The translations under genes were made by a program, and so were the position numbers. DNA of 40,027 nucleotides from a virus (taxonomy: Duplodnaviria > Caudoviricetes): the IMG/VR virus record IMGVR_UViG_3300020432_000016, positions 1 through 40,027 of that record, one strand, 5' to 3'. The notes under the pieces were generated by a model, which saw only the letters and a program-made list of their open reading frames with translations, was not told the origin of the DNA and made no database searches. Of the stretch, positions 1-22,469 are shown in pieces. The first letter of the stretch is position 1. Every line of letters begins with the position of its first letter.

Positions 1-268
1 ATTTGCCGTGATTAGAATGCCCTGTTGAATACCTCCCCGCCCAGAATCTAGGCAAAAATTGGGGTTAGAAGTCTCCCCTGCGACTCGTGAGACTAGGACC
101 CGAGACTGGCAAGAAATTTGTAATATTTATTGACAATGTGAGACTAACGAGATTTTAAGAATTATTAAGTTTTGTAATCTCAGAATGAGACAGCCGAGAT
201 CGATTGTGAGACAATGTCAATAGGTATTAATGCCTAAAAATTAAGGGGCGAAGATTGCCCTTTTAAAA

Positions 269-295
269 AGTAGTTGAGAATTATTCTCAAGTACT
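269..295. promoter_or_regulatory. Palindromic operator-like site AGTAGTTGAGAAT-T-ATTCTCAAGTACT (Fur-box-like core), copy 1
   Basis: Perfect 8-1-8 core at 274-290, extending to 13-1-13 with one mismatch; near-identical copy at 5525-5551. Confidence 0.6.
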
Positions 296-481
296 CAGTC
301 TTAGCCTAATTTACAAAAATTAATGATACAAATTAAAAGAATGTAAACACTTAGACAGTTTCTCGGTTTGAGTATTCGCGATTTTTGATATAAACAATTG
401 GCCCGGCTTGATTGTTTACCCTAAAAAGCCGCCTTAAAACTATATGTCCGCAAGTCTTCTGCGGTTTAGTTCTTAATACTT

Positions 482-823
482 ACGCCAAATCCCTTGCGCG
501 GCAATGGATCTCAGCCGCGGGAATCGATGGCAAGCGATGGCCACGGATCGGCGCGATTATTCCGCGAAATCCCAGTCACAGACAAGGATCCGGGCGATGC
601 GATTTCTGATCGATATTTGGCACGCCAAATCCCTTGCGCGGCAATGGATCTCAGCCGCGGGAATCGATGGCAAGCGATGGCCACGGATCGGCGCGATTAT
701 TCCGCGAAATCCCAGTCACAGACAAGGATCCGGGCGATGCGATTTCTGATCGATATTTGGCACGCCAAATCCCTTGCGCGGCAATGGATCTCAGCCGCGG
801 GAATCGATGGCAATCGATGGCCA
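482..823. repeat. 140-bp tandem repeat, about 2.4 copies, non-coding
   Basis: ACGCCAAATCCCTTGCGCGG starts at 482, 622 and 762; first two units look identical, third is partial; period is not a multiple of 3. Confidence 0.95.
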
Positions 824-828
824 GGCAC

Positions 829-852
829 AAAAAAAAGGGGCCTAAGCCCCTT
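829..852 (-). terminator. Intrinsic terminator
   Basis: Minus strand AAGGGGC-TTAG-GCCCCTT with a T8 tract, just after the stop of 857..1009. Confidence 0.85.
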
Positions 853-856
853 GTGA

Positions 857-1009
857 TTAGTCGACCCAGCGGCTCCAATCCTTAAGCCTTTCTTCTGTTT
901 CTTTCTCCTCTGAGCGACGCCCGAGAATTTCAGAGCAGCGATCAAGGGAGGCGCCTACAGAATCAAGTTGGGCCTTGAATTCAGCGGAGAGGCGGCGGCG
1001 GTTGGCCAT
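857..1009 (-). CDS. Small charged helical protein, 50 aa (MANRRRLSAEF...)
   Basis: ATG at 1009 with CAATCGCAC 8 nt upstream and a TACCAT -10-like hexamer; followed by a terminator. Confidence 0.7.
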   Translation of the reverse strand: MANRRRLSAEFKAQLDSVGASLDRCSEILGRRSEEKETEERLKDWSRWVD

Positions 1010-1180
1010 TGTCGTCTGTGCGATTGACTCCCTAATGGTAGCGATTCTGTGCACCGTTTACGGTGGCGTTGATAATTCTTAACATTCTCGCATCGGCCTC
1101 CAGGAGCCCCGGGAAGGGCCCTCCATCACAGGCTAGGCGGGTCACCCCTAGGCGATCCCTGGCCACTGGCAGCGGCGGCG

Positions 1181-1208
1181 TTGCGTGCACCGTATGGCGT
1201 GATATAAT
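1181..1208 (+). promoter_or_regulatory. Sigma-70-type promoter with extended -10
   Basis: TTGCGT-N16-TATAAT with TGn immediately upstream of the -10. Confidence 0.75.
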
Positions 1209-1250
1209 GGGGGAGCCTCAGAGATGAGGCGCCAATCGCACCTAAAAAAC

Positions 1251-1391
1251 ATGGGAAGAATCACCGAGCGCTTACGCGCTGAGCTCGAGAAGATGAAGGC
1301 CGCCGATCTTAAGCATCAGCAACTGATTGAGGCTTACTTAGCAGAAACGGCCGACAGATTACGAGAGCTAGAAAAACTCTCGCGCAAGTGA
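1251..1391 (+). CDS. Small coiled-coil-like protein, 46 aa (MGRITERLRAELEKMKAADLKHQQLIEAYLAETADRLRELEKLSRK); not in the ORF track
   Basis: Manual translation; sits between promoter/leader and terminators; same MGRI start as 1785..1943. Confidence 0.8.
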   Translation: MGRITERLRAELEKMKAADLKHQQLIEAYLAETADRLRELEKLSRK

Positions 1392-1403
1392 GACGACATC
1401 AAC

Positions 1404-1493
1404 AAAGGGGAGCAATCGCTCCCTTTTTTTTGTTGTTAACCGTTCGCCGGTTAAGTGTTCACCAGCTGCGGCCCAATTTGGGCCGCTTTTTTT
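1404..1493 (+). terminator. Two tandem intrinsic terminators
   Basis: GGGAGC-AATC-GCTCCC-T8 and GCGGCCC-AATTT-GGGCCGC-T7. Confidence 0.9.
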
Positions 1494-1714
1494 GTGCCTA
1501 CCGTTCGCGGGTTAGTTGTTAGTTTCCCCGCCTTAAAACCGGTAAATAACTTTATGCCCGCGAGTCTCCGGTGATATCAACCGAGCTCCTTCTACGGTGC
1601 CCTTAGCATCTCTTCACATTCTCGCATCGGCCCCTGGGAGCCCCTGCAAGGGCCCTCCCGCGCTGCCGGGGTGGGTCACCCCTAGGCGATCCCTGGCCAC
1701 TGGCAGCGGCGGCG

Positions 1715-1742
1715 TTGCGTGCACCGTATGGCGTGGTATCAT
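1715..1742 (+). promoter_or_regulatory. Sigma-70-type promoter with extended -10
   Basis: TTGCGT-N16-TATCAT with TGn upstream; paralogue of 1181-1208. Confidence 0.7.
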
Positions 1743-1784
1743 GGGGGAGCCTCAGCAATGAGGCGCCAATCGCACCTAGAAACC

Positions 1785-1943
1785 ATGGGAAGAATCGCCG
1801 ACGCTATGCGGGCCAATCTGGACCGGATCCGCGAACTTGATCAGCGCCAAGAGGAACTTATAAACAAGTTACTCGATACGACGCAACGATTGATCGACGA
1901 GGCAAACATCGAAATTTCAAAACTTGACCGTTTCGATGATTGA
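1785..1943 (+). CDS. Small coiled-coil-like protein, 52 aa (MGRIADAMRANLDR...)
   Basis: Start re-called to ATG 1785 from promoter position, leader motif and parallel with 1251. Confidence 0.8.
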   Translation: MGRIADAMRANLDRIRELDQRQEELINKLLDTTQRLIDEANIEISKLDRFDD

Positions 1944-1948
1944 GAACG

Positions 1949-2034
1949 GGGGAGCAATTGCTCCCCTTTTTTATTGCTTACCGTTCGCCGGTTAAGTGTT
2001 CACCAACTGCGGCCCAATTTGGGCCGCTTTTTTT
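1949..2034 (+). terminator. Two tandem intrinsic terminators
   Basis: GGGGAGC-AATT-GCTCCCC-T6 and GCGGCCC-AATTT-GGGCCGC-T7. Confidence 0.9.
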
Positions 2035-2107
2035 GTGCCTACTGTTGCCGGCTTGAGTAATACAGAAACAGCCCATAAGAGGGTGTTAATCCATGAGCCC
2101 ACGAGTC

Positions 2108-2869
2108 CTAAGCGGCCAAGGTCTCAAGCGCCGAATCCACGCGGCGACGGCTTGCGCCGTGAGCTTTAAAGGCAATGATAAGCCGGGGATCCGAGCCCCC
2201 CCCGCGGCCGCGGCAGCACATCAAACAAGTTGCGCAGCTTGCGCCGTCTGTCGTCTGAGCAGGGCAGACCATCACAGGGTGGCCATCAGGGCTCCGCCAA
2301 TGGGTGCGCTGCTCATCGCTGGGAACCACCACCACAGCAGGCAAGCCAGCCCTGATCATTGCGTCAGCCTGCCCCAAGGTTTCACAACTGGCATTGACGC
2401 TGACACCTTGCCGGTTGAGCGTTCGCAGGATTTCTAAGTTTTCCCCGAGCTCCGGCCGGTGGTGCGAGTAGCCCCAAACCTTTAGACCTTTGGCCGCTTT
2501 AGCCAGGCCACGAGCAAACGTTCGACTGATGCGGCCCTGCAGATTGGCCGGGAGGTCGCCAGCTTGGAAAATACGCAGCAATGAGCCGGCAGGCAGCGCG
2601 GCAATCTGTTGCAAGTGTTCCGCGTAAAGGCTGCCACGATCGCCGGAGCTCACCGCGTCCCAGTGATGCCGCATGGGGTGGTTTTCCGCGTAACATCCGC
2701 CGCCGTTTTCTTTTTTGTGTGGACATTCAGCCGGGCAAGTTGAACGGCTTGATGTGGTCGCATAGACCACAGGCCGAACATCTGGCCCCGTTTGTGGTTT
2801 CTTTCCGGTTAATTTCTGATTTTTTGTTTGCGCCAAATGGAAAGAATGACGCGCTAAATCATTGGCCAT
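2108..2869 (-). CDS. Cysteine-rich phage protein (GP88-like), possible Fe-S/metal binding
   Basis: Motifs TCPAECP..GCYAE, LRIFQAGDL, WGYSH and C-terminal CP..CATCLMC; leader motif 11 nt upstream. Confidence 0.6.
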   Translation of the reverse strand: MANDLARHSFHLAQTKNQKLTGKKPQTGPDVRPVVYATTSSRSTCPAECPHKKENGGGCYAENHPMRHHWDAVSSGDRGSLYAEHLQQIAALPAGSLLRIFQAGDLPANLQGRISRTFARGLAKAAKGLKVWGYSHHRPELGENLEILRTLNRQGVSVNASCETLGQADAMIRAGLPAVVVVPSDEQRTHWRSPDGHPVMVCPAQTTDGASCATCLMCCRGRGGGSDPRLIIAFKAHGASRRRVDSALETLAA

Positions 2870-2927
2870 TTTTAAAAATTGTGCGATTGGTTGACCATCC
2901 GCCTCATGAGTGATAGAGCGAACGGTT

Positions 2928-2952
2928 AAAAAAAGGGCCGTTAAATCAGCCC
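2928..2952 (-). terminator. Intrinsic terminator overlapping the stop of 2941..3291
   Basis: Minus strand GGGCTG-ATTTAA-CGGCCC-T7. Confidence 0.75.
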
Positions 2953-3291
2953 CAAAAGTGTCAGCCAGCTGTCCTGATCGTCTGGCTCAACTGTTGACCC
3001 GTCCGGCGTTTCTGCTATGCCGTCAAACGTCCAACGCATCAAATCATCATGCGAGGGGATGACATGCCAAGCCTGGGACCAATAAAGGCGGCGAACTTTA
3101 AAAGGACCGAACGCGGCCAAATCGCCGCTAGTCAATAACAGCCCGCCGGTCTCGGGATCTTTCCACCTTTTGCGTCCATATGGACTCCGGCAGATGACAA
3201 CCTGACCGCCGCGCTTCATCAAGGTGAGCGGGATTTCTGGCTGCTCTAGGGCGATTGCTTCCCAGTGTGGGGTGCTGAATTTTCCTGCCAC
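2941..3291 (-). CDS. Hypothetical protein, 116 aa
   Basis: Tightly packed with 3295..3639; protein-like C-terminus ETPDGSTVEPD..SWL..LGLI. Confidence 0.75.
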   Translation of the reverse strand: MAGKFSTPHWEAIALEQPEIPLTLMKRGGQVVICRSPYGRKRWKDPETGGLLLTSGDLAAFGPFKVRRLYWSQAWHVIPSHDDLMRWTFDGIAETPDGSTVEPDDQDSWLTLLGLI

Positions 3292-3294
3292 TGG

Positions 3295-3639
3295 TCAGCC
3301 CTCACCATGGAGAAGGTGGCCTAGGCCGGCGTCTCGCCATTGCTGCGCCCGTTCGGGTTTAAGTCCTGGGTCGATTCTCAGCCGGCCGCCTTGCTGCTGA
3401 TGCCAAGTGGCGATCCTTTCAACTTCCGCCCGGAAGGATTCGGCATCGCTGCACGTCTGGGCGGTTATGTCGCCTTCGCAAAAGCTGATCAGCTTTCTGT
3501 GCACAGGGTGAGCCCAAAGGCCAAACCATGAGGCGTCAGATTCGGTGTCAAGTTGAGACCAGCCGGCCGGGATCAGTTGATTGTCAAAGTCGAAACGCAC
3601 CGCTTCGGCGCAGAATTCCCTTGTGATTGTTACGGTCAC
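3295..3639 (-). CDS. Hypothetical protein, 114 aa
   Basis: 3-nt gaps to both neighbours; GWSQLDTESDASWFGLWAHP..FCEGD motif. Confidence 0.75.
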   Translation of the reverse strand: MTVTITREFCAEAVRFDFDNQLIPAGWSQLDTESDASWFGLWAHPVHRKLISFCEGDITAQTCSDAESFRAEVERIATWHQQQGGRLRIDPGLKPERAQQWRDAGLGHLLHGEG

Positions 3640-3642
3640 AGC

Positions 3643-3837
3643 TCAGGCCCCCATGGCGTCATCTAGCGCCGCAGCGGCGGCAACGGTCAGCGATGCGCCG
3701 GATGTTGCGGCCAGGAGAACCCAAGCCGGGGAGAGGTGCCACGCAGTGGCGCGGTCGTTCTTGGCAAGGTCGCCGGCAAAGACTGCGCCGGCTGCGCAGG
3801 CGACCCCTAGGGCTGCAAAAAAGAGTTTTGAAAACAT
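3643..3837 (-). CDS. Small membrane protein, 64 aa
   Basis: Two hydrophobic segments; first gene of a three-gene operon, leader motif 10 nt upstream. Confidence 0.7.
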   Translation of the reverse strand: MFSKLFFAALGVACAAGAVFAGDLAKNDRATAWHLSPAWVLLAATSGASLTVAAAAALDDAMGA

Positions 3838-3888
3838 TTGAGAGGGTGTGCGATTGGTGGCGCCTATTGAACGTTGGCGCCTATTGAG

Positions 3889-3916
3889 AGACTAGCCAGG
3901 GATCGGCACTCTTCAA
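3889..3916 (-). promoter_or_regulatory. Candidate promoter for the 3837 operon
   Basis: Minus strand TTGAAG-N16-TAGTCT; spacer contains CGATCCCTGGC, also present upstream of the cassette promoters. Confidence 0.45.
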
Positions 3917-4190
3917 AGTGCACCGCTGAGTTGTTGTTTTTTCTTCACAATCCCCGCGGGTCTTCCCGAGATCCTCGCCGCGCTATTGGGGCCGTCCCGG
4001 GATTTTTCCTTGCCCATGAGAAGCCGGGGCAGTACGAAAAACTGCTCAGCGTGAAAAAACGCCTCTCGAAAATTTGGCAAGTAAAAATTTCGCTTGTATA
4101 TAAAAATCGAAACGCGAAAAAATCAGCTAAGCGAGAGGCCCTCCCGGTTTTTTCCTTGCTTTGTGTTGCTTTTCTCCAGAATTAGCTCTT

Positions 4191-4454
4191 CTACTCCTGG
4201 ACGTAGTAAGCCGAAGCCTGATTGACGGATCCTTGAATTACGGTATCGATGTGAATGGTGTTCCCAACATCCTCAAAAATACGCTTTAGGATGTCAGGGT
4301 CTTCTACGTTTCGTTGACAGTCAGATTCGCGATCCTCGGCTTTCAAAATACAATCGTTCTTAGTGTAAATCCACGCCGCACAGTGTGCGTTTTCGCCCTG
4401 TTCCTCAATCAGTCGGCTCACTACGTTCTGGAGTTGGTCTAGAGTGTACTTCAT
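4191..4454 (-). CDS. Hypothetical protein, 87 aa
   Basis: ATG-initiated ORF with AT-rich upstream region and plausible composition. Confidence 0.7.
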   Translation of the reverse strand: MKYTLDQLQNVVSRLIEEQGENAHCAAWIYTKNDCILKAEDRESDCQRNVEDPDILKRIFEDVGNTIHIDTVIQGSVNQASAYYVQE

Positions 4455-4629
4455 AATCAGTTTTTAAAAAGTTGGAAATTAAAATTAACGGCTAGGGAAA
4501 TCCCTTAAGCGATCAACAGGCAGGCGCCAAAAGCTCAATCAGGGGCACCGGATCAGCCTCTAATGAGCTCAAAACGCATGCCAGCACTAGACAAGCCAGC
4601 TAACTTAACAAAAATTAAGTAATGAGCGA

Positions 4630-5184
4630 TTAACAGGCAGGAGCCAGAAGCTCAATCAGTTGGGCCTTTCTTGCGCTGCGCACTTGCTGACTAGAAAATC
4701 CACGGCGACGAGCCAAGGAGCGCAGAGCAGCGACGGTACGCGGCAGAGGCTCCACAACGGCCGGCAGAGGGGCAGCGGTGGGCTTGGGATCGTTGCGCGT
4801 GATCCACGCGGCAAAGCGGGCGCCTAGGGCCGCGCTAGCGGTGATCACTAGGCGACGGGCAAACAATAGCGCGGCCACGGCGAAAATGACAACGGCCACG
4901 GCTACCCTCGCCACGGTTGGCCAGTGAATACGACGCCAAACGGCGCGGCAAGCTTTCAAGGTCAACAGCAGCAAAGGAAGCAGATCACGGCGCCAAATCT
5001 GACCGCATAGGCGGCCGGCTTGATATGTCGCAACGGCGGCGGCATAGGTGGCGCGGATGATTCGCGCCAAAGTGTCGAGAGCCCAAAGGATGGCGCCGGC
5101 AGTGAAGAGGTCACCAGCGACGGCCCATAGGCGAGCAATGGCGGCTAAGAGGTGAGCCGCGGCACCGATTTCTAAAGGGTGCAT
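4630..5184 (-). CDS. Membrane protein with C-terminal Rho_N/HeH-like helical domain, 184 aa
   Basis: Start re-called to ATG 5184 (leader motif 10 nt upstream); hydrophobic helices; C-terminal TVAALRSLARRRG..RKAQLIELL. Confidence 0.65.
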   Translation of the reverse strand: MHPLEIGAAAHLLAAIARLWAVAGDLFTAGAILWALDTLARIIRATYAAAVATYQAGRLCGQIWRRDLLPLLLLTLKACRAVWRRIHWPTVARVAVAVVIFAVAALLFARRLVITASAALGARFAAWITRNDPKPTAAPLPAVVEPLPRTVAALRSLARRRGFSSQQVRSARKAQLIELLAPAC

Positions 5185-5286
5185 GGGGAGGGGTGTGCGA
5201 TTGGTTCGCCCCGCGCCGCATCGATTCCAGCGGCAGCAGGGCAGGCGGCACCCCTTTGGAGATCCGGTTTTCAATGTTCCCCCAAA

Positions 5287-5295
5287 TTGTACACA
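5287..5295 (-). promoter_or_regulatory. Extended -10-like element
   Basis: Minus strand TGTG-TACAAT-TTGGGGGA, similar to TATAAT-GGGGGA in the cassette promoters. Confidence 0.5.
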
Positions 5296-5524
5296 CTGCG
5301 CGGGGCATTGCCGGCACCCTTAATGATCTCTACAGATTCTGAGACTGCCGCAGCCTAGGACGCTTTGCCCCGCCGGGGCATTGCCCGGCATTCGCCAGTG
5401 GGGGCACCTTGTGAGAGCCCGGGGACCGATTAACTGGGAGTTTGTATCACAAACTGGGCCGCCCTATTGTTTATAATATTAAGTTTTGTAAATATCATTA
5501 AGTTTTGTAATTGCATGAGACCAG

Positions 5525-5551
5525 AGTAATTGAGAATTATTCTCAAGTACT
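5525..5551. promoter_or_regulatory. Palindromic operator-like site, copy 2
   Basis: AGTAATTGAGAATTATTCTCAAGTACT, 26/27 identical to 269-295. Confidence 0.6.
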
Positions 5552-5718
5552 TTTTCCGTACAGGTGATCATATAACACTTACCCAAAAATCAGAAACCCA
5601 AAAAAAATTCCCCCCGCCTACTGGACGATCGGTCATAATGAACGCTAGAAAGCCCTATTAAAACCGCCCCCCCGCGAGTCTTCGGCCTTTTTAAAACCGA
5701 CCCCCTGCGAGTCTCAGC

Positions 5719-6369
5719 ATGCATGACGCCAAGCTGGTCCACTGCACAGTAAATGCAGAAGAGCTAATCGTCGACATGGCGCGGGTTTCAAACCCATCCA
5801 ATCAGGGGCACCCAGAAAGTGCTCCAAGGCTCTTGAGGTTCCTCTTGCGCATGGGGCACTGGAGCCCATTTGAGATGGCGTCAATGGCTGTTGAGATCAG
5901 GACCACACGCTCAATCAGCCCACAGATCCTCCGGCATGGCAAGGGTTTCTCGTTTCAGGAATTCTCACAGCGCTACAGCAACGTCAATCAGTTAGAGCTG
6001 ATCACACCGTTCCATTTGCGGTCCCAAGATTCAAAAAACAAGCAGGCCAGTCACGACGACCTGCCCGATTGGAAAGTTGACCGACTTACAAGAATGATCG
6101 AAAAGCATTTATGGGATGCACAAGAGCTTTACCAGCATCTGCTCGATGAAGGCGTAGCCAAGGAATGTGCAAGAGGAGTGCTCCCGCAATGTCAGCCAAC
6201 AAGACTGTTCATGCACGGCAATCTAAGATCTTGGATTCATTACCTTCAAGTGCGATGTGGCAAGGAGACTCAACTAGAGCATCGCAATATTGCCAACAGC
6301 ATCAAAGACATTTTTGCTGCGCAATTCCCCATTATCCATAAAGCAGCTTTTGAGCCGACTCCCACTTAG
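5719..6369 (+). CDS. thyX: FAD-dependent thymidylate synthase
   Basis: HWSPFE, QILRH..FSFQEFSQRY ThyX motif, AKECARGVLP, GNLRSWIHY. Confidence 0.97.
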   Translation: MHDAKLVHCTVNAEELIVDMARVSNPSNQGHPESAPRLLRFLLRMGHWSPFEMASMAVEIRTTRSISPQILRHGKGFSFQEFSQRYSNVNQLELITPFHLRSQDSKNKQASHDDLPDWKVDRLTRMIEKHLWDAQELYQHLLDEGVAKECARGVLPQCQPTRLFMHGNLRSWIHYLQVRCGKETQLEHRNIANSIKDIFAAQFPIIHKAAFEPTPT

Positions 6370-7192
6370 CCATCGTTTCAGTGAATACCTTTGAGAAGAC
6401 CTCATCGACACGACGTTTGTACGCAGTCTCCATAGCGAAATAAAACGTGTACTTAGCTGGCACCACTGGGTCCTCCCTTAGCTGCGCTATGACTCGCTTC
6501 AAGAAGGGCTTCTTCCCACCCATCTGCTTATAGACACCTGGGGGCAATGGCTTGTCAGTGTATTTCTTCCCGCCAGCCATTGAATTTCGACGGAATACCA
6601 AGGTGTGCTTGCCATGTTCCTCCGCATCAGGGACATACAAATAAGTTCCATCTGGTTTCGGTATCTTTTTACCAGACCTTCGACCCATAAATTCATCAGA
6701 GAAGTCTTTCACTGAGCCGAATTCCCTAGCAGCCCATAATCCTTTAACAGTAAGTCGCGCCCAATAATTCTTTTGACCTTTGTATGGTCCGTGCGTATCA
6801 GCCACCCAATATCCACGAGTAGTGCCCGTCGCGGCCAACCGTCGCATCAATCGGGTACGAAATACTGAGCCCCCTTGTTGCTGAACTGATAAGTAGTCAG
6901 CCGCAGCATTCCCCTTCAGACCGAATGCATTATCCTTGTGACCAAATCTCAGCCTTAGCCAATCCTTCCTGACTTGTTGTGATGTAGAGAATAACGAGTC
7001 TTTTGTCCAATTAACCAAACTGTCAAATGTATCCGTCATCTCTTTTCGCATCTCCTCCCAAACAGGCCCACCTGCCTTGCCTGATCTCGTCACCCAATAA
7101 AGCTTTCGCATGGTTTGTGACGCCATCCACGGAAGCTCCTTCTTTTGGAAGTCGTCCAGCTGGTCAATTAATTGATCAAACTCAATCTTCAC
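6332..7192 (-). CDS. Basic hypothetical protein, 286 aa; possible neck/tail-completion protein
   Basis: Long ORF; N-terminus loosely resembles phage tail-completion proteins; function is weakly supported. Confidence 0.45.
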   Translation of the reverse strand: MKIEFDQLIDQLDDFQKKELPWMASQTMRKLYWVTRSGKAGGPVWEEMRKEMTDTFDSLVNWTKDSLFSTSQQVRKDWLRLRFGHKDNAFGLKGNAAADYLSVQQQGGSVFRTRLMRRLAATGTTRGYWVADTHGPYKGQKNYWARLTVKGLWAAREFGSVKDFSDEFMGRRSGKKIPKPDGTYLYVPDAEEHGKHTLVFRRNSMAGGKKYTDKPLPPGVYKQMGGKKPFLKRVIAQLREDPVVPAKYTFYFAMETAYKRRVDEVFSKVFTETMAKWESAQKLLYG

Positions 7193-7391
7193 TTTCTTCC
7201 TTCTCGGGCTTGTCCTTTACTCCATTATCTACAGAATAAATTGGTGCTCGAAACAAGCCAGTATATAAACCATGCATCGGATGCTCTGAATTGTCGCGAC
7301 CATCAGCAACATAAGCCTCATCCAGTTGTTCTTGGATCACTCTTTGAACCTTGACAGTGTTGAGTGGATCAATCATCGGGGTCGTAGCCAT
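7182..7391 (-). CDS. Hypothetical protein, 69 aa
   Basis: Overlapping operon packing; YVADGRD..HPMHGLYTGL motif. Confidence 0.75.
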   Translation of the reverse strand: MATTPMIDPLNTVKVQRVIQEQLDEAYVADGRDNSEHPMHGLYTGLFRAPIYSVDNGVKDKPEKEESED

Positions 7392-7560
7392 TTCGTTGTG
7401 CTCTAAGTTCTAGTTGGCGCTGTATAGCCCTCTCTAGCTGCTCTTTCTTCTCCTCCACCAGATGCATGCTGCTCACATAGCACGAAGCCGTGACTCCATA
7501 CTGCGTAAGGCTGACCTTAATCTGTCCGTCGTACTGGGTTTCCAGGTCCACCGTGTTCAA
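7369..7560 (-). CDS. Hypothetical protein, 63 aa
   Basis: Operon packing; TTG start uncertain. Confidence 0.65.
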   Translation of the reverse strand: MNTVDLETQYDGQIKVSLTQYGVTASCYVSSMHLVEEKKEQLERAIQRQLELRAQRNGYDPDD

Positions 7561-7792
7561 TCTCCTCTGATTTTGCCTTGACTGATGCCATCTCCAGTTT
7601 GACCCTGTGAAACATCAGATTGTGCTTGTTCGTGAGTCCAGGCTCTTTCAAGCGCAGCTCCATCCAGGCTTCAGCGAGCACCTGATAACCCTTTAGGTAT
7701 GTCTCAATCGTCAGGGCCCATGTGTCAAATTCCTCTCTCGTAACCCAAACTGCGTCAGGAGGAGATTGAGGTGAGTCTGTCATCTTTTGCAA
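7517..7792 (-). CDS. Hypothetical protein, about 90 aa
   Basis: Operon packing; start uncertain. Confidence 0.65.
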   Translation of the reverse strand: MQKMTDSPQSPPDAVWVTREEFDTWALTIETYLKGYQVLAEAWMELRLKEPGLTNKHNLMFHRVKLEMASVKAKSEEIEHGGPGNPVRRTD

Positions 7793-8015
7793 TTAGACGT
7801 TTTTGTTCTATTTCTAAAAACTGGATTTCTCTTCGCAAATAGTACATCGCCTTACTCAGATCTGTCATCTTGTCCTCTCCTTGCTTGTATCCAGCTCGAC
7901 TCACATATTTAATGACATTGCCAAGGTTGAAATTAAATCCTTGGTCCTCAATGTAATCAATGACTTCTATGTCACCATTTCGGTAATGGGCTGGCTTGAT
8001 TTTAGAGTCGTCCAC
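7755..8015 (-). CDS. DUF3310-family protein (T7 gp1.7 nucleotide-kinase-like)
   Basis: KPAHY..GDIEVIDYI..FNLGNVIKYVSRAGYK..DLSKAMYYL; start re-called to GTG 8015. Confidence 0.85.
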   Translation of the reverse strand: MDDSKIKPAHYRNGDIEVIDYIEDQGFNFNLGNVIKYVSRAGYKQGEDKMTDLSKAMYYLRREIQFLEIEQKRLIAKDDRLTSISS

Positions 8016-8446
8016 TTTTCTTCTCGCTCTTGAGTAACTGGCAAATAGCACTCTAAATATGACCCATGTTTCTCCTCGTTGATCTTTCGGTCCAACAGCC
8101 AAAATCCTTTCTTCAGTTGATGATGCAGCTCTGCCTTATTAACTGCAGCGCCACTTCCGATTAACGCCAGCAGAATCATCCGCACAGACCAGTAGCTAAC
8201 TGCAAATTCAATCACACCTTTTGCGTTGTTCTTTTGAGCTGGAGCGAACTCCATGAACCTCTGACGCAGCTTGGCAAACAACGACCAATCGTCGATTCCG
8301 TCCCCGACGCAGTGATCTAAGGCGTGCTTGATTGTCATCAGTCCTTCAACGCTTGTTTTGATCAAGCAGAAATCAGCTTGGACATCACTCAGCATTGCTG
8401 GGCCCATCTTCTTTAGGTTTGATGCCGAATCGATCGAATGGGTCAT
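7967..8446 (-). CDS. Hypothetical protein, up to 159 aa
   Basis: Fills the operon gap; start uncertain. Confidence 0.65.
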   Translation of the reverse strand: MTHSIDSASNLKKMGPAMLSDVQADFCLIKTSVEGLMTIKHALDHCVGDGIDDWSLFAKLRQRFMEFAPAQKNNAKGVIEFAVSYWSVRMILLALIGSGAAVNKAELHHQLKKGFWLLDRKINEEKHGSYLECYLPVTQEREEKWTTLKSSQPITEMVT

Positions 8447-8567
8447 GGCCTGTTTGTAGGATTGAAAGTGCTCGTCGGTAAAAATAAGATTCTGTTTTTC
8501 CTGCCTCTCTAAGCGCTTCTTCTATCTTTTTCCAACTCTGAATTGTGTCGGCGTCCAGTCTTTCCAT
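8385..8567 (-). CDS. Hypothetical protein, 60 aa
   Basis: ATG start; WKKIEEAL..GKTESYFYRRA helical motif. Confidence 0.7.
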   Translation of the reverse strand: MERLDADTIQSWKKIEEALREAGKTESYFYRRALSILQTGHDPFDRFGIKPKEDGPSNAE

Positions 8568-9324
8568 AGGTGGTTCCGAATGGTTTTGCTTTGGTCAGTC
8601 GATAGCTTTTGTTTTTTGCCTGGTCGGCGATGTTCGCAACTCTGCTTGGATTTTTCGGGCTCCTAGTCCTTGGATCCATTAATCGCAGCTTGTTCAAATC
8701 GTAATCACGCTTTGCACTGTGCTGCTGTGCAACACACACATCATGTATCTGATCCAATGAAAGCTTCACGTCGACCATGTAGCCATCCAGCCATTTTTCG
8801 GTGGTGTTTTCTACAAAGTCCCAGTTACCACCACATTTGCCTTGCCTTTGAGTCCGTTCTGCAAGGCTTCTCCAAAATCTTTCTGTATACTGAAGGGCTT
8901 TCAACATTCCCTCTCTCTTGATCAGGTCCTCTCGCCAAATACGGAATCTGTAGCACTCTCTCGAGAAGTCAACAATCGGCATGCAATGCACGCCAATGTC
9001 TAGAGTTCCATTAGCCCTGCTGTAAGTCGCCAGGCGTCCAAAGGCAAGGGCTTGCTTGTACAAGTTGTCGTTCTGATCAAAGGCATTTGGCGCCATTGTT
9101 GGGTGATGCCATAGCCAAAAGTGATCGCTATACGCCATTCGGTCATCGAGGTTTAGCGACAAGGTGTTGTTTAAACATGTCACTGAAGTCACCGATGACC
9201 TTTCGTCCCATGGATAGAGAGAGACATTGCTGATACAACTCCGATTGAGTGCTTTTTTGACTGAAGAAATCCAGCCGTGGATCACCACCACTTGGCCCAC
9301 GTAGGGCGCAAGTTCTGTTCTCAT
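8509..9324 (-). CDS. Hypothetical protein, 271 aa
   Basis: Long ATG-initiated ORF; no recognised motif. Confidence 0.8.
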   Translation of the reverse strand: MRTELAPYVGQVVVIHGWISSVKKALNRSCISNVSLYPWDERSSVTSVTCLNNTLSLNLDDRMAYSDHFWLWHHPTMAPNAFDQNDNLYKQALAFGRLATYSRANGTLDIGVHCMPIVDFSRECYRFRIWREDLIKREGMLKALQYTERFWRSLAERTQRQGKCGGNWDFVENTTEKWLDGYMVDVKLSLDQIHDVCVAQQHSAKRDYDLNKLRLMDPRTRSPKNPSRVANIADQAKNKSYRLTKAKPFGTTYGKTGRRHNSELEKDRRSA

Positions 9325-9386
9325 ATCATTAATGAGTAGTAGACGTGAATTACAGATAGAAAAAGGCCCCCAGGGCTTCCCTCACT

Positions 9387-10427
9387 TCAGGAAGCCTCCG
9401 GGGGGCCAATCGCACCCCCATATGTTAGCACCGTTTCCCTAGGCCGCAACGGCTTTGTCCCTTGCCGTTCGCCTTGCCTGGCCTCAAAGTCAACCTCGAC
9501 CACCTTTGCGTCCTTCTTAATCTCAAGCAGTTTCGCCTGCCGGACCAACTTTTTAAGTGCTCGCAACCTGGCGTTCCTTACCACATTCTGCTTCCACTTG
9601 CCCCCAAGTCGTTTGCTGATCTTTTGGACGCTCCACCGCTCACCGTCGTAGAACCCGAATGAATAGTGCAAAACCACCTTTTCAGTTTGTGATAATGACG
9701 CTGCTTCTATCAGTTCTTTGTATCCATCAAGTTTGATGCTATCCATGTAAGATTCCTCTTCACAATCAATAATCGCAGAAGCAAAATTCTCAAGAGTGTC
9801 CTTGTCCTTCGAATTTGACTTTTTCTTAGATCCACTGACAGGGGCGTCAATACTTACCACACGTCGGGCTACCTCGGTTGCAAGCTGGTCTTGTCTTTCT
9901 GGCTTGATGCCCACTCCTATGTAAATCTGTTCTTTAGTTGGCATCTCCCCGTTGCTAGCTAAAAATTCAGACTTGTACCGTTCAATCCTTGCGTGAAGTT
10001 GTTGTGCATTAACTGGCAGTCTGATTGTGTGGCGGTTGTTCTCCATGTCTCTATTGATGGCCTGTCGAATCCACCAGTAGGCATAGGTCGAAAACTTATA
10101 GCCCAGTGTGTAGTCGTACTTTTCGCACGATCGCACCAATCCAATGTTTCCCGCACCAATCATGTCCATGATGTCCATCCCTGGGCGATGGCGTTGCTTG
10201 GCTAAATGGATCACCAACCTGAGATTGCAATTAACCAACTTTTGAATAGCCTTGTCCTTCCGCTTAATCTGTCTAGGGGTTGCGTTCTCCGCAAGCCCTT
10301 CCTGAATCTGTTTCCCAAGCATCAACTCCTGAGCGGGTTTGAGCAGTGGGAAACGACCAACCCATTGCACGTAATCGCGATAATGCGGCGTGGATTGAAA
10401 TGTTGGACTGGGACTACTACCGATCAT
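9387..10427 (-). CDS. RNA polymerase sigma-70 factor (RpoD/SigA family)
   Basis: Region 2 NLRLVIHLAK..DMIGAGNIGL..EKYD..GYKFSTYAYWWIRQAI; region 4 ending RALKKL. Confidence 0.95.
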   Translation of the reverse strand: MIGSSPSPTFQSTPHYRDYVQWVGRFPLLKPAQELMLGKQIQEGLAENATPRQIKRKDKAIQKLVNCNLRLVIHLAKQRHRPGMDIMDMIGAGNIGLVRSCEKYDYTLGYKFSTYAYWWIRQAINRDMENNRHTIRLPVNAQQLHARIERYKSEFLASNGEMPTKEQIYIGVGIKPERQDQLATEVARRVVSIDAPVSGSKKKSNSKDKDTLENFASAIIDCEEESYMDSIKLDGYKELIEAASLSQTEKVVLHYSFGFYDGERWSVQKISKRLGGKWKQNVVRNARLRALKKLVRQAKLLEIKKDAKVVEVDFEARQGERQGTKPLRPRETVLTYGGAIGPPEAS

Positions 10428-20541: not shown

Positions 20542-21601
20542 GCCAACACATCCAATCCTTGCCTGCGTGCGCGTCACAGCCGATGTTGACCGCGGCCTGA
20601 CTGTGGAGGCAAATAATTTAGAGGTCTACATTGAAAAAATTGTTTCATGCCAGGTTGAAAAAGAGGGTTCAATCTGTATCCCTGCCAAGAGTCTTTGCGA
20701 TCTTGTTGCCAAGCTTGATGGTGGCGACGCTTTGGACCTCTCGACCACTGAACACCGTCTTTGTATTGGAACGAAGGCGGGTGAGTTCTCCATCAGTGGC
20801 TTCCCTTCTGAAGACTGGGTTGATATGCCCACCGAATCGACCTCGAAATTTCACGTTGTTGATCTAGAGAGCGCCTGTAAGACAGTGCAGGATGCGATAG
20901 CCAAAGACAGGCCAGACCTGGATGGAGTGAACATCCGGTGTGACGGAAGCTCAATTGATTTCGCCGCAACAGATGGTCATCGCTTGCATGTGATCAAACA
21001 ACTTGTACAAGACACCGCCTCGTCTGATGGAGATCTAGATGACTTCAACATCACAATACCGGAAAGCGTCTTAAAGCTTGCGCAGGGTGATGCAGGGGAG
21101 ACACAACTGTCCTTCAGTGACACACATGTGTGCGTGCGGACTCAACTTACGTCCTTGACTGGCCGGCGAAAGTCCGCAACCTATCCAGATTACCCTCAGT
21201 TAATACCAAAAAAGGCTACCAACACATGCGAAGTGGATCGCCAGCTCTTGTTGCGTGTTGTGGATCGAGTGGGGGCAGTGGCCGCGGACGCCAACAACAT
21301 TATGTTTTTAGGCAAAACACTAGAGCGTAAAAACAATCTGGTGTTGACCGCAAAACATTCCCAAGGCTTTGCCAAGGAGTTTGTACCAGCTGAATTCCAG
21401 GTGGGCACAAATCAAGGGCAGAGCTCTTTAGAAGATTCATTTGGGCTGTACCTCAACAGCCGGTTTCTTTCTGAGGCTCTGTCTTCACTTCAAGGTGAAC
21501 TTGTACGTCTTGAATACGTTAGTAAGCACGCCCCATTTCTTGTAAGAACAGACGACCAGATCTGCATGATTATGCCATTGCAGGGTAGAAGCGATGACTG
21601 A
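20471..21601 (+). CDS. dnaN: DNA polymerase III beta sliding clamp
   Basis: 376 aa; [42 protein letters not shown]. Confidence 0.93.
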
Positions 21602-22469
21602 TGCGATGGGTGACTACTTGGCACGCATTGGATTAATTTCAATGCTGGAGGCACCAGAGGAGCTTGAGCTTGGGCGTATTGTCCAGGCCAATATTCATCT
21701 TGTAAACAGGAGCAGAGCTCAAGAGCGACAGCTTCAAAGGGCAAAAGATCGCATGATCGAAGCCAATCTTCGCCTAGTAGTCTCCATCGCTAAGAAATTC
21801 GCCAAGCATGTACCACCATCGGAGTTGCTTGATCTCATTCAAGCTGGCAACACTGGCTTGATTCGGGCTGTTGAAAAGTTTAATCCAAGTCTTGGTTATC
21901 GATTCAGCACTTATTCCTACTGGTGGATCAAACAAGCCATTACCCATTATTTACATACATACAAGCATGTCATACGGCTACCAACATCTCAGCATGAGCG
22001 ATTGAGGAAGCTGGAGCAGTTTAAGTCTAAATTCAATCAAGGTCTCAGAGATGAAAATCTGGATGAGATCCTGACAACATTGGGACTGACGAGAGATGAT
22101 GCCGCAAGGTTGATTCGCTATAAGACAGCTCCACGTAGCCTCGACGCATTAGCTGTAGAGGATGGCACGCCACTGGTTGAACTTATAGCGGCACCAGAGC
22201 AACAAGACGACGAAGAAAGCGCATATGAGGTTAGGGAGGCATTTCAGCGCTTGCCACCAGATCAAAAACAAGTTGTCGACCTCCATTTTTACGAGGGTCG
22301 ATCTATCAAGGAGATAGCGGCACTAACAAACCAGCCTGCCAGTGTTATTGAAAGGCTAAAAGTGACCGCTGTATTTACCATCTGCCGCTTAACGATGGGC
22401 GTTGTCTCAATCTCGGAAGAGGAGCTACAAGACTCCACTCTTTCCTTCATACAAACCAGTTTCTTTTAG
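21594..22469 (+). CDS. Second sigma-70 factor (RpoD/SigA family)
   Basis: [59 protein letters not shown]. Confidence 0.95.

Follow-up and report, generated by a model that had tools for sequence, protein, structure and literature searches.

A predicted phage-encoded small RNA and its matching leader motif in the early region of a 40-kb virus fragment

The c4 antisense RNA of phages P1 and P7 is processed from the operon that it controls and acts via short complementary sites. Both c4 (RF01695, listed in PMC2864571) and the CI RNA of P4 (PMC4825925) work in trans on the phage's own transcripts through such short, repeated sites. We describe here a related arrangement in a 40-kb virus fragment, IMG/VR record IMGVR_UViG_3300020432_000016 (hereafter the window, meaning all 40,027 nucleotides analyzed), in which a 9-nucleotide (nt) motif stands just ahead of six probable early genes and is the likely target of a predicted phage-encoded small RNA (sRNA). 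Unlike c4 and CI, which are cut from their own target operon and function in lysogenic immunity, the unit in the window has its own predicted promoter and terminator, a single 5′-terminal seed and up to six unlinked target sites at gene starts.

Among bacterial sRNAs, RybB pairs through a seed at its 5′ end and GcvB pairs with C/A-rich leaders. The predicted RNA resembles both of these and the cyanobacterial Yfr1, as outlined in the accessible part of PMC6596454, in being short, in its conserved single-stranded seed and intrinsic terminator, and in having many predicted targets in initiation regions; it differs in being phage-encoded, with its regulon in its own genome, near-perfect repeated sites and no match in Rfam. 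Phage regulatory RNAs that act by pairing include PreS of lambda, VpdS of VP882, sar of P22, OOP and CfrI of S-PM2. These target host mRNAs or single overlapping phage genes, with VpdS affecting both host and phage mRNA levels via Hfq, and in the portion of the review available to us (PMC12197685) none is described with one shared leader motif over an early regulon.

The nearest parallel in layout is the start-associated sequence (SAS) of cluster K mycobacteriophages. In the available text of PMC3203893, SAS is an asymmetric 13-bp repeat with a Shine-Dalgarno (SD) core, found 3–7 bp from the start, at the ribosome-binding position of non-structural genes that follow long intergenic gaps, and often accompanied by 17-bp inverted repeats. 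Each of four K1 genomes also has one SAS in the opposite orientation, off any gene start, and whether the reader is an RNA or a protein was left open (PMC3203893). An earlier note on the window, made from its letters alone, had likened the motif to SAS. That likeness stands for the layout, with sense copies at starts and a single reversed copy elsewhere, and falls for the rest: the window motif differs in sequence and does not fit the SAS consensus, has no SD and lies 8–11 nt from the start, so that the two resemble each other only in how they seem to work.

The window carries seven exact copies of the motif, CAATCGCAC; shuffled versions give 0.56 ± 0.74 copies, and none of 100 shuffles reached seven. 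Six of them, all recognized in the earlier note and all real, lie in sense orientation 8, 9, 9, 11, 10 and 10 nt before an ATG, each of which begins an open reading frame (ORF) of at least 46 amino acids. The chance expectation given in the note, 0.04 copies per 5.2 kb, agrees well with the roughly 0.07 obtained from shuffles. Two copies, at 1233 and 1767, fall within a single 217-nt duplication (86% identical), which leaves five independent sites. The note had also overlooked the seventh copy, at 9407–9415, which is antisense, away from any gene start, and places the exact complement of the motif on the minus strand. The six leaders are listed below, with coordinates in the window.

1018–1026, minus strand: target motif, 8 nt before ATG 1009 (50-amino-acid ORF); −10 box TACCAT at 1040–1035; the motif would begin at about +3.
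1203–1241, plus strand: leader cassette with −10 box TATAAT at 1203–1208, predicted +1 at 1215, 5′ hairpin with a GAGA loop at 1215–1230, motif at 1233–1241 and ATG 1251.
1737–1775, plus strand: duplicate leader cassette with −10 box TATCAT at 1737–1742, predicted +1 at 1749, hairpin with a GCAA loop at 1749–1764, motif at 1767–1775 and ATG 1785.
2881–2926, minus strand: leader of the DUF7227 gene, with a predicted hairpin at 2926–2894, motif at 2889–2881 and 11 nt to ATG 2869; no −10 box of its own was found.
3848–3894, minus strand: leader heading the 3837-3639-3291 operon, with −10 box TAGTCT at 3894–3889, predicted hairpin at 3881–3859, motif at 3856–3848 and ATG 3837.
5195–5291, minus strand: leader with −10 box TACAAT at 5291–5286, predicted hairpin at 5242–5208, motif at 5203–5195 and ATG 5184.

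The earlier view that the motif heads transcription units applies to five of the six sites, where a TAnnnT box is found 8, 24, 24, 32 or 82 nt upstream. Site 2881 has no such box within 110 nt, and RNA contigs span a terminator-like hairpin upstream of it. As the note reported, the motif is absent ahead of the coupled genes at 3639 and 3291, whose leaders are G-rich and SD-like; gene 4454, on the minus strand of the same early region, also lacks it. The GGCG that had been seen in front of the motif is indeed present, and is explained as the 3′ arm of a predicted leader hairpin that stops 2–4 nt before the motif at five of six sites. The two duplicated hairpins differ in their loops (GAGA and GCAA), both of the GNRA type, and folding predicts that the leaders are largely open. 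We call the six genes early because they are small, of unknown kind and preceded by host-type promoters and terminators, which makes this status probable. At site 5195, both motif and hairpin are kept in three relatives (L122, L167 and L168).

Other identities for the motif were set aside. Pairing with the anti-SD was rejected, in agreement with the note. HIP1, the dispersed and position-independent cyanobacterial palindrome GCGATCGC, has no copies in the window, and the motif is asymmetric and linked to starts. Scanning viral contigs with the motif alone returned an estimated 1,800 or so hits, all consistent with chance matches, and no clustered copies.

RNA contigs from marine runs that contain the window virus begin at 1215 (runs X3 and X4) and at 1749 (X2 and X3), exactly 7 nt past the −10 boxes. 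Coming from one sample, these starts are a weak hint that the motif is located in the 5′ untranslated region, downstream of the predicted start sites, rather than upstream of transcription, a position that the note had considered fatal to an RNA-level signal. Sites 1018, 3848 and 5195 have no contig cover, which is not evidence either way, and run X5, from a second study, contributed one uninformative piece. A generic promoter scan detected none of these leader promoters nor that of the sRNA described below, because it requires a match to the −35 element. In addition, contigs of two runs end at 3729, inside the ORF 3837–3643 and beside a hairpin at 3736–3752, and two RNA contigs end at 2100; in this one sample, both positions are possible processing sites or transcript ends.

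The duplicated cassette is itself a composite structure. Its two copies (1051–1513 and 1585–2054) each comprise a promoter, the 5′ GNRA hairpin, the motif, a short coiled-coil ORF and two terminators. The flanks are 86–91% identical and the ORFs have diverged, a pattern that suggests gene exchange between shared cassettes.

The note had proposed searching phage sRNAs for the complement of the motif, and one such RNA is predicted at the seventh copy. Here the motif occupies the non-coding strand within a block of minus-strand genes. Read on the minus strand, this copy gives GUGCGAUUG, which begins 7 nt after a −10 box of sequence TG-TAACAT; a G+C stem-loop and then five Us come next:

9360–9415, minus strand: predicted sRNA of about 56 nt, with free 5′ seed GUGCGAUUGG at 9415–9406, a G+C stem-loop and a U tract at 9364–9360.
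9422–9449, minus strand: predicted sigma70-type promoter of the sRNA (TTGCGG, 16 nt, TG-c-TAACAT), with predicted +1 at 9415.

The window contains 12 GTGCGAT sites, and only the one at 9415 on the minus strand has a TAnnnT box at the right distance. Across 40 units, the first eight nucleotides of the seed have a predicted unpaired probability of 0.80, compared to 0.24 for the body of the sRNA. Predicted duplex energies with the six targets, which lie 4–8 kb away on both strands, range from −18.4 to −20.3 kcal/mol, compared to −2.8 to −9.0 kcal/mol for five other starts. Judged by conservation and folding, the locus has the makings of a stand-alone sRNA unit, with a predicted promoter, a conserved unpaired seed and an intrinsic terminator. 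Rfam covariance searches gave no match at E ≤ 1 in window positions 1–10,000, nothing relevant in four relatives' loci, and none at the gathering score in four more. The family was found neither in Rfam nor in the open-access literature searched, and 50,697 records of cultured phages held no match to the sRNA.

Two minus-strand genes near the unit are listed here:

9387–10427, minus strand: sigma70-like gene, whose non-conserved C-terminal tail runs into the sRNA unit, in the window lineage only.
6332–7192, minus strand: phrog_1924 minor tail gene, a synteny marker with the sRNA unit directly upstream in most relatives.

Scans for close relatives, using ThyX, the exonuclease and metagenomes, produced one sister lineage only, G001, in which a contig end cuts the early region. 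There, a 66-nt island corresponding to the sRNA is 85% conserved, non-coding, located beyond the sigma stop codon and altered by a 1-nt indel; the two sigma proteins are only 39% identical, though in the window the gene overlaps this conserved island. At the corresponding promoter position G001 has TTGACA-17-TATTAT.

Further afield, 576 viral relatives matched a DUF7227 profile, and the 80 best were used. In a blind 8-mer scan of their leaders, words containing CAATCGC came out on top in several of the 80. These relatives likewise have a single reversed copy, laid out as TG-n-TAnnnT, six variable nucleotides, GCGATTGG, a stem and a U tract. A pattern scan gave 30 loci, two of them without hairpin and U tract, and in an alignment of 27 distinct units, a set gathered in part with a pattern containing the seed, the seed core is invariant and the 6 nt between −10 box and seed vary freely. 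The outer stem, that of the terminator, shows pairing in 89.9% of its 179 cells and has undergone 12 double changes; neither value was matched in any of 500 shuffles, and slid controls reached 45–63%, in a statistic that related sequences can inflate. RNAalifold recovered five pairs from the plain alignment, a low count because the inner stems vary in length. Of 50 records searched with a covariance model (R1) built from the 27 units, 24 gave a single strong hit each and four others gave weak hits; the model scores the window sRNA at 46.7 bits, by construction. Five pattern hits (L161, L162, L170, L265 and L275) were set aside for want of a hairpin-plus-U-tract unit, and four detector hits (L178:10114, L214, L215 and L221:6437) were dropped as spurious.

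A search blind to the seed, made upstream of the phrog_1924 tail gene, found the unit in 43 of 76 distinct tail-gene loci. The 33 loci lacking an adjacent unit are mostly distant homologs from unrelated phages. They also include the window and G001 lineages, in which the unit lies 2.2 kb further upstream from the tail gene, and L287 and L289, family members that have no unit upstream of it. Both the unit and, as described next, the position of the motif are conserved in relatives, where the note had held that a lack of positional conservation would speak against its proposal.

Seed and leader motif change together. The comparison covered the window and 39 loci whose downstream sequence extends for at least 1 kb. 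Among the 30 loci with a GCGAUUG seed, CAATCGC occurs in 48 of 1,181 early-region leader windows and in 13 of 2,387 elsewhere (blind rank 2 of 7,945). In four loci of 31–33% GC the seed is AAGAGAU, and ATCTCTT, which had already ranked first in the blind leader scan, is found in 10 of 69 early leader windows and 5 of 218 elsewhere (rank 1 of 808). Cross-occurrence is low, with no CAATCGC in the AAGAGAU loci and two ATCTCTT in the 30 GCGAUUG loci. In the window itself, the cognate 7-mer is present in 6 of 41 early leader windows and none of 326 elsewhere (rank 1 of 519). Additionally, the spacer between −10 box and seed is 8 nt long in the window, so that the predicted seed is 2 nt longer and gains GU, and each of the six targets has the matching AC at its end. 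The DUF7227 leader gives the same picture: of 26 loci with a GCGAUU unit, 23 have ATCGC 7–14 nt before the ATG, as do none of 22 long loci without a unit and 10 of the 28 loci whose shortness leaves the presence of a unit undecided, and ATCTCTT is present in both AAGAGA loci. Overall, complementarity to translation-initiation regions appears conserved with matched changes, in that three seed classes match their own leaders and five further loci do so loosely.

More seed variants occur at the syntenic position, in L298 (about 5000–5160) and L284 (about 9900), reading GGGCAGAC... and GCGAGAGG...; L284 has one CCCTCGC leader, and both contigs end too early for other targets to be compared. Separately, a group of phages of about 70 kb (L172–L177, L212–L214, L223–L228 and L244) has DUF7227 genes without the sRNA unit, behind long (TTTC)n/(TTCC)n pyrimidine leaders that may answer to a different regulator or act as S1-type enhancers.

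We propose that the leader motif is the shared target of a trans-acting sRNA encoded by the phage itself at 9415–9360 on the minus strand, and that pairing represses the early genes as a lytic brake. We put the probability of this reading at roughly 60%; that the sRNA pairs with the motif at all is very probable. Three features are read directly from sequence: the complementarity is exact, the complement is flanked by a conserved promoter-like box and a conserved terminator-like hairpin, and seed and leader show matched changes between lineages. The earlier note had proposed that early mRNAs carry an RNA-level signal and that a protein or an sRNA reads it. This proposal gains ground, with the evidence favoring an sRNA whose candidate gene lies in the same window. 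Among the outcomes it offered (selective translation, stabilization or timed shut-off), shut-off or repression is the most likely.

In the proposed mechanism, host sigma70 polymerase would transcribe a short, stable RNA, a suggestion based on the finding of sigma genes in only one of five near-complete relatives. Its unpaired 5′ 8–10 nt would pair with A/C-rich leaders that are single-stranded and lack an SD, roughly between −20 and −9 relative to the AUG. A helix of 9–11 bp at 8–11 nt from the start codon falls inside the 30S footprint, and the pairing would block ribosome loading and lower initiation, with mRNA decay probably ensuing. A single RNA could block six likely early genes at once and, because it must first accumulate, would act with a delay, as a brake that gradually closes down the early program. 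New early genes would enter the regulon by gaining the motif. The unit is most likely a new family of phage sRNAs with a self-directed early regulon.

Several observations weigh against this proposal. There is no RNA contig over 9360–9415, where such contigs are uninformative for a 56-nt RNA. Four of the 30 GCGAUUG loci have no exact target, and the five loci with GCGAAAG (one), GCGAAUG (two) and GCGAUGG (two) seeds have one exact cognate site in total, their sites being otherwise bulged or mismatched. When duplex energies were compared across classes, the cognate seed was clearly favored only for the window; the GCGAUUG and GCGAUGG-related classes came to a near tie, and the test failed for GCGAAAG, GCGAAUG and AAGAGAU. 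A DUF7227 tree with 42 rows, drawn from the 80 relatives, has a long and unsurely placed row for the window itself. On this tree, the joint absence of unit and motif amounts to one or two changes and the AAGAGA switch to one, and this switch is confounded with the 31–33% GC of those loci. With so few independent events and this confounding, Fisher P values for the co-variation are inflated. Finally, 48 of 51 GCGAUUG sites have an A directly after the target 7-mer. Pairing of this A with the base before the seed was rejected: in 12 sites the latter base is itself an A and unable to pair, and 11 of these still have the A after the target. As a conserved, unpaired residue, this A points to a second constraint on the leader, probably translational.

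The same pairing and repression could instead serve immunity or superinfection exclusion, with the RNA, produced in a lysogen or in a cell that is already infected, silencing the early genes of incoming kin in the manner of c4 or CI. A host-type promoter needs no phage factor, in line with the rarity of sigma genes noted above, and a seed shared across the family would give cross-exclusion; moreover, in the available parts of PMC12197685 and PMC4825925, the antisense RNAs known from phages act mostly in lysogeny or exclusion. We nonetheless find this purpose unlikely. A tyrosine integrase was found in only one of five near-complete relatives (serine recombinases were not searched), and the unit is found where the replication-gene block ends, not in an immunity region. 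Nor does it belong with c4 (RF01695) or CI themselves, given that integrase count, the lack of a covariance match and the fact that it is not processed from a target immunity operon.

Pairing might also activate, by shielding mRNAs from RNase E or by helping ribosomes onto early mRNAs without an SD. The tagged genes do lack an SD where the coupled genes have SD-like leaders, and the predicted 5′ hairpins suggest mRNAs built for stability. Yet the leaders are predicted mostly open, which leaves little to unfold, and the helix would fall within the 30S footprint; we hold activation to be decidedly unlikely.

A DNA-level account has in our view a slim chance: a regulator would recognize the motif in double-stranded DNA, and the "sRNA" would be only the terminated leader from a late promoter that resembles lambda pR′/tR′ and carries the motif in reverse. 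This account would suit the 43 of 76 tail-gene loci with the unit directly upstream, and altered protein specificity would likewise shift all sites together. Against it, copies at gene starts are without exception sense and those at +1 antisense. What is constant is the distance to the ATG (9–11 nt in 42 of 51 GCGAUUG sites); the −10 box in the window lies at the varied distances given above or is missing. Variant targets also retain G-U or bulged pairing (for example CCGATCGC and CCCCATCGC), and in the window lineage the unit is 2.2 kb from the tail gene. Read-through may still be a second role of the unit.

Slimmer still is the chance that the motif is only a cis-acting translation enhancer (A/C-rich, S1-type) or protein-binding site with a complement that is coincidental or aimed at host mRNAs, an idea that fits the conserved unpaired A, the pyrimidine/A-rich context and the pyrimidine-rich leaders of DUF7227 genes without the unit, but leaves unexplained why loci without the unit also lack the motif and why the motif becomes ATCTCTT where the seed is AAGAGAU.

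The host of the window virus is probably picocyanobacterial, as suggested by best matches to Synechococcus and Prochlorococcus phages and to cyanobacterial sigma factors. The window encodes lambda-like tail genes, ThyX, a beta clamp, a primase and two sigma70-like genes. No cyanophage homolog of the marker tail gene was found, and MED4-117 lacks the unit. Two sigma70-like genes in one siphovirus (9387–10427 and 21594–22469) are also the count in G001; four relatives of about 39 kb have none. Ahead of the early region, at 482–823, is a 140-nt unit in 2.4 nearly identical tandem copies, possibly an effect of assembly. The palindrome TTGAGAATTATTCTCAA and a TATTAAGTTTTGTAA repeat flank the early region on both sides (269–295 and 5525–5551); a variant is kept in L122, GAGAAT/ATTCTC repeats recur at early-region edges in distant relatives, and these elements are possibly operator, packaging or origin sites. 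Short direct repeats occur at gene ends and before thyX (4508–4542 and 4625–4659; 5652–5714), of the form TTAAAACC...GCGAGTCT, with further copies near 434 and 1534 and in L122, and are possibly a second class of promoter.

The layout shared with SAS has a possible parallel in the mycobacteriophages. The right half of Mycobacterium phage Anaya has 15 sense SAS copies and one reversed copy (L352:29871–29883), which is intergenic, between genes 96 and 97, and places its anti-SAS/anti-SD stretch in the loop of a predicted plus-strand hairpin. Matches to the region occur in 150 mycobacteriophage records. Amelie retains the loop; Amohnition and Shandong1, which belong to two other genera, have it in altered form, and Hurricane and Pixie lack it. 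Pixie is a counter-example, having 18 sense SAS copies in its right half despite the absent loop. We regard the reversed SAS of Anaya as a candidate antisense regulator of K1 SAS genes. It is possible, though doubtful, that start-associated motifs of phages are in general the targets of microRNA-like RNAs of about 50 nt, encoded by the phage, which time the shut-off of an entire early regulon, its genes freely exchangeable, through a 5′ seed, that seeds and leader motifs switch together in diverging lineages, and that the reversed SAS of K1 is a regulator of the same kind.

How phages without their own polymerase shut off early genes is poorly known. In the window, a single tiny RNA gene and the full set of its predicted targets are legible from the sequence, and natural compensatory variants provide built-in controls, so that the mechanism can be tested without culturing the phage. 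A single reversed copy of a start-associated motif also gives a search rule for other phages. For cluster K, whose SAS function the accessible text of the 2011 report leaves open (PMC3203893), the finding offers a concrete test.

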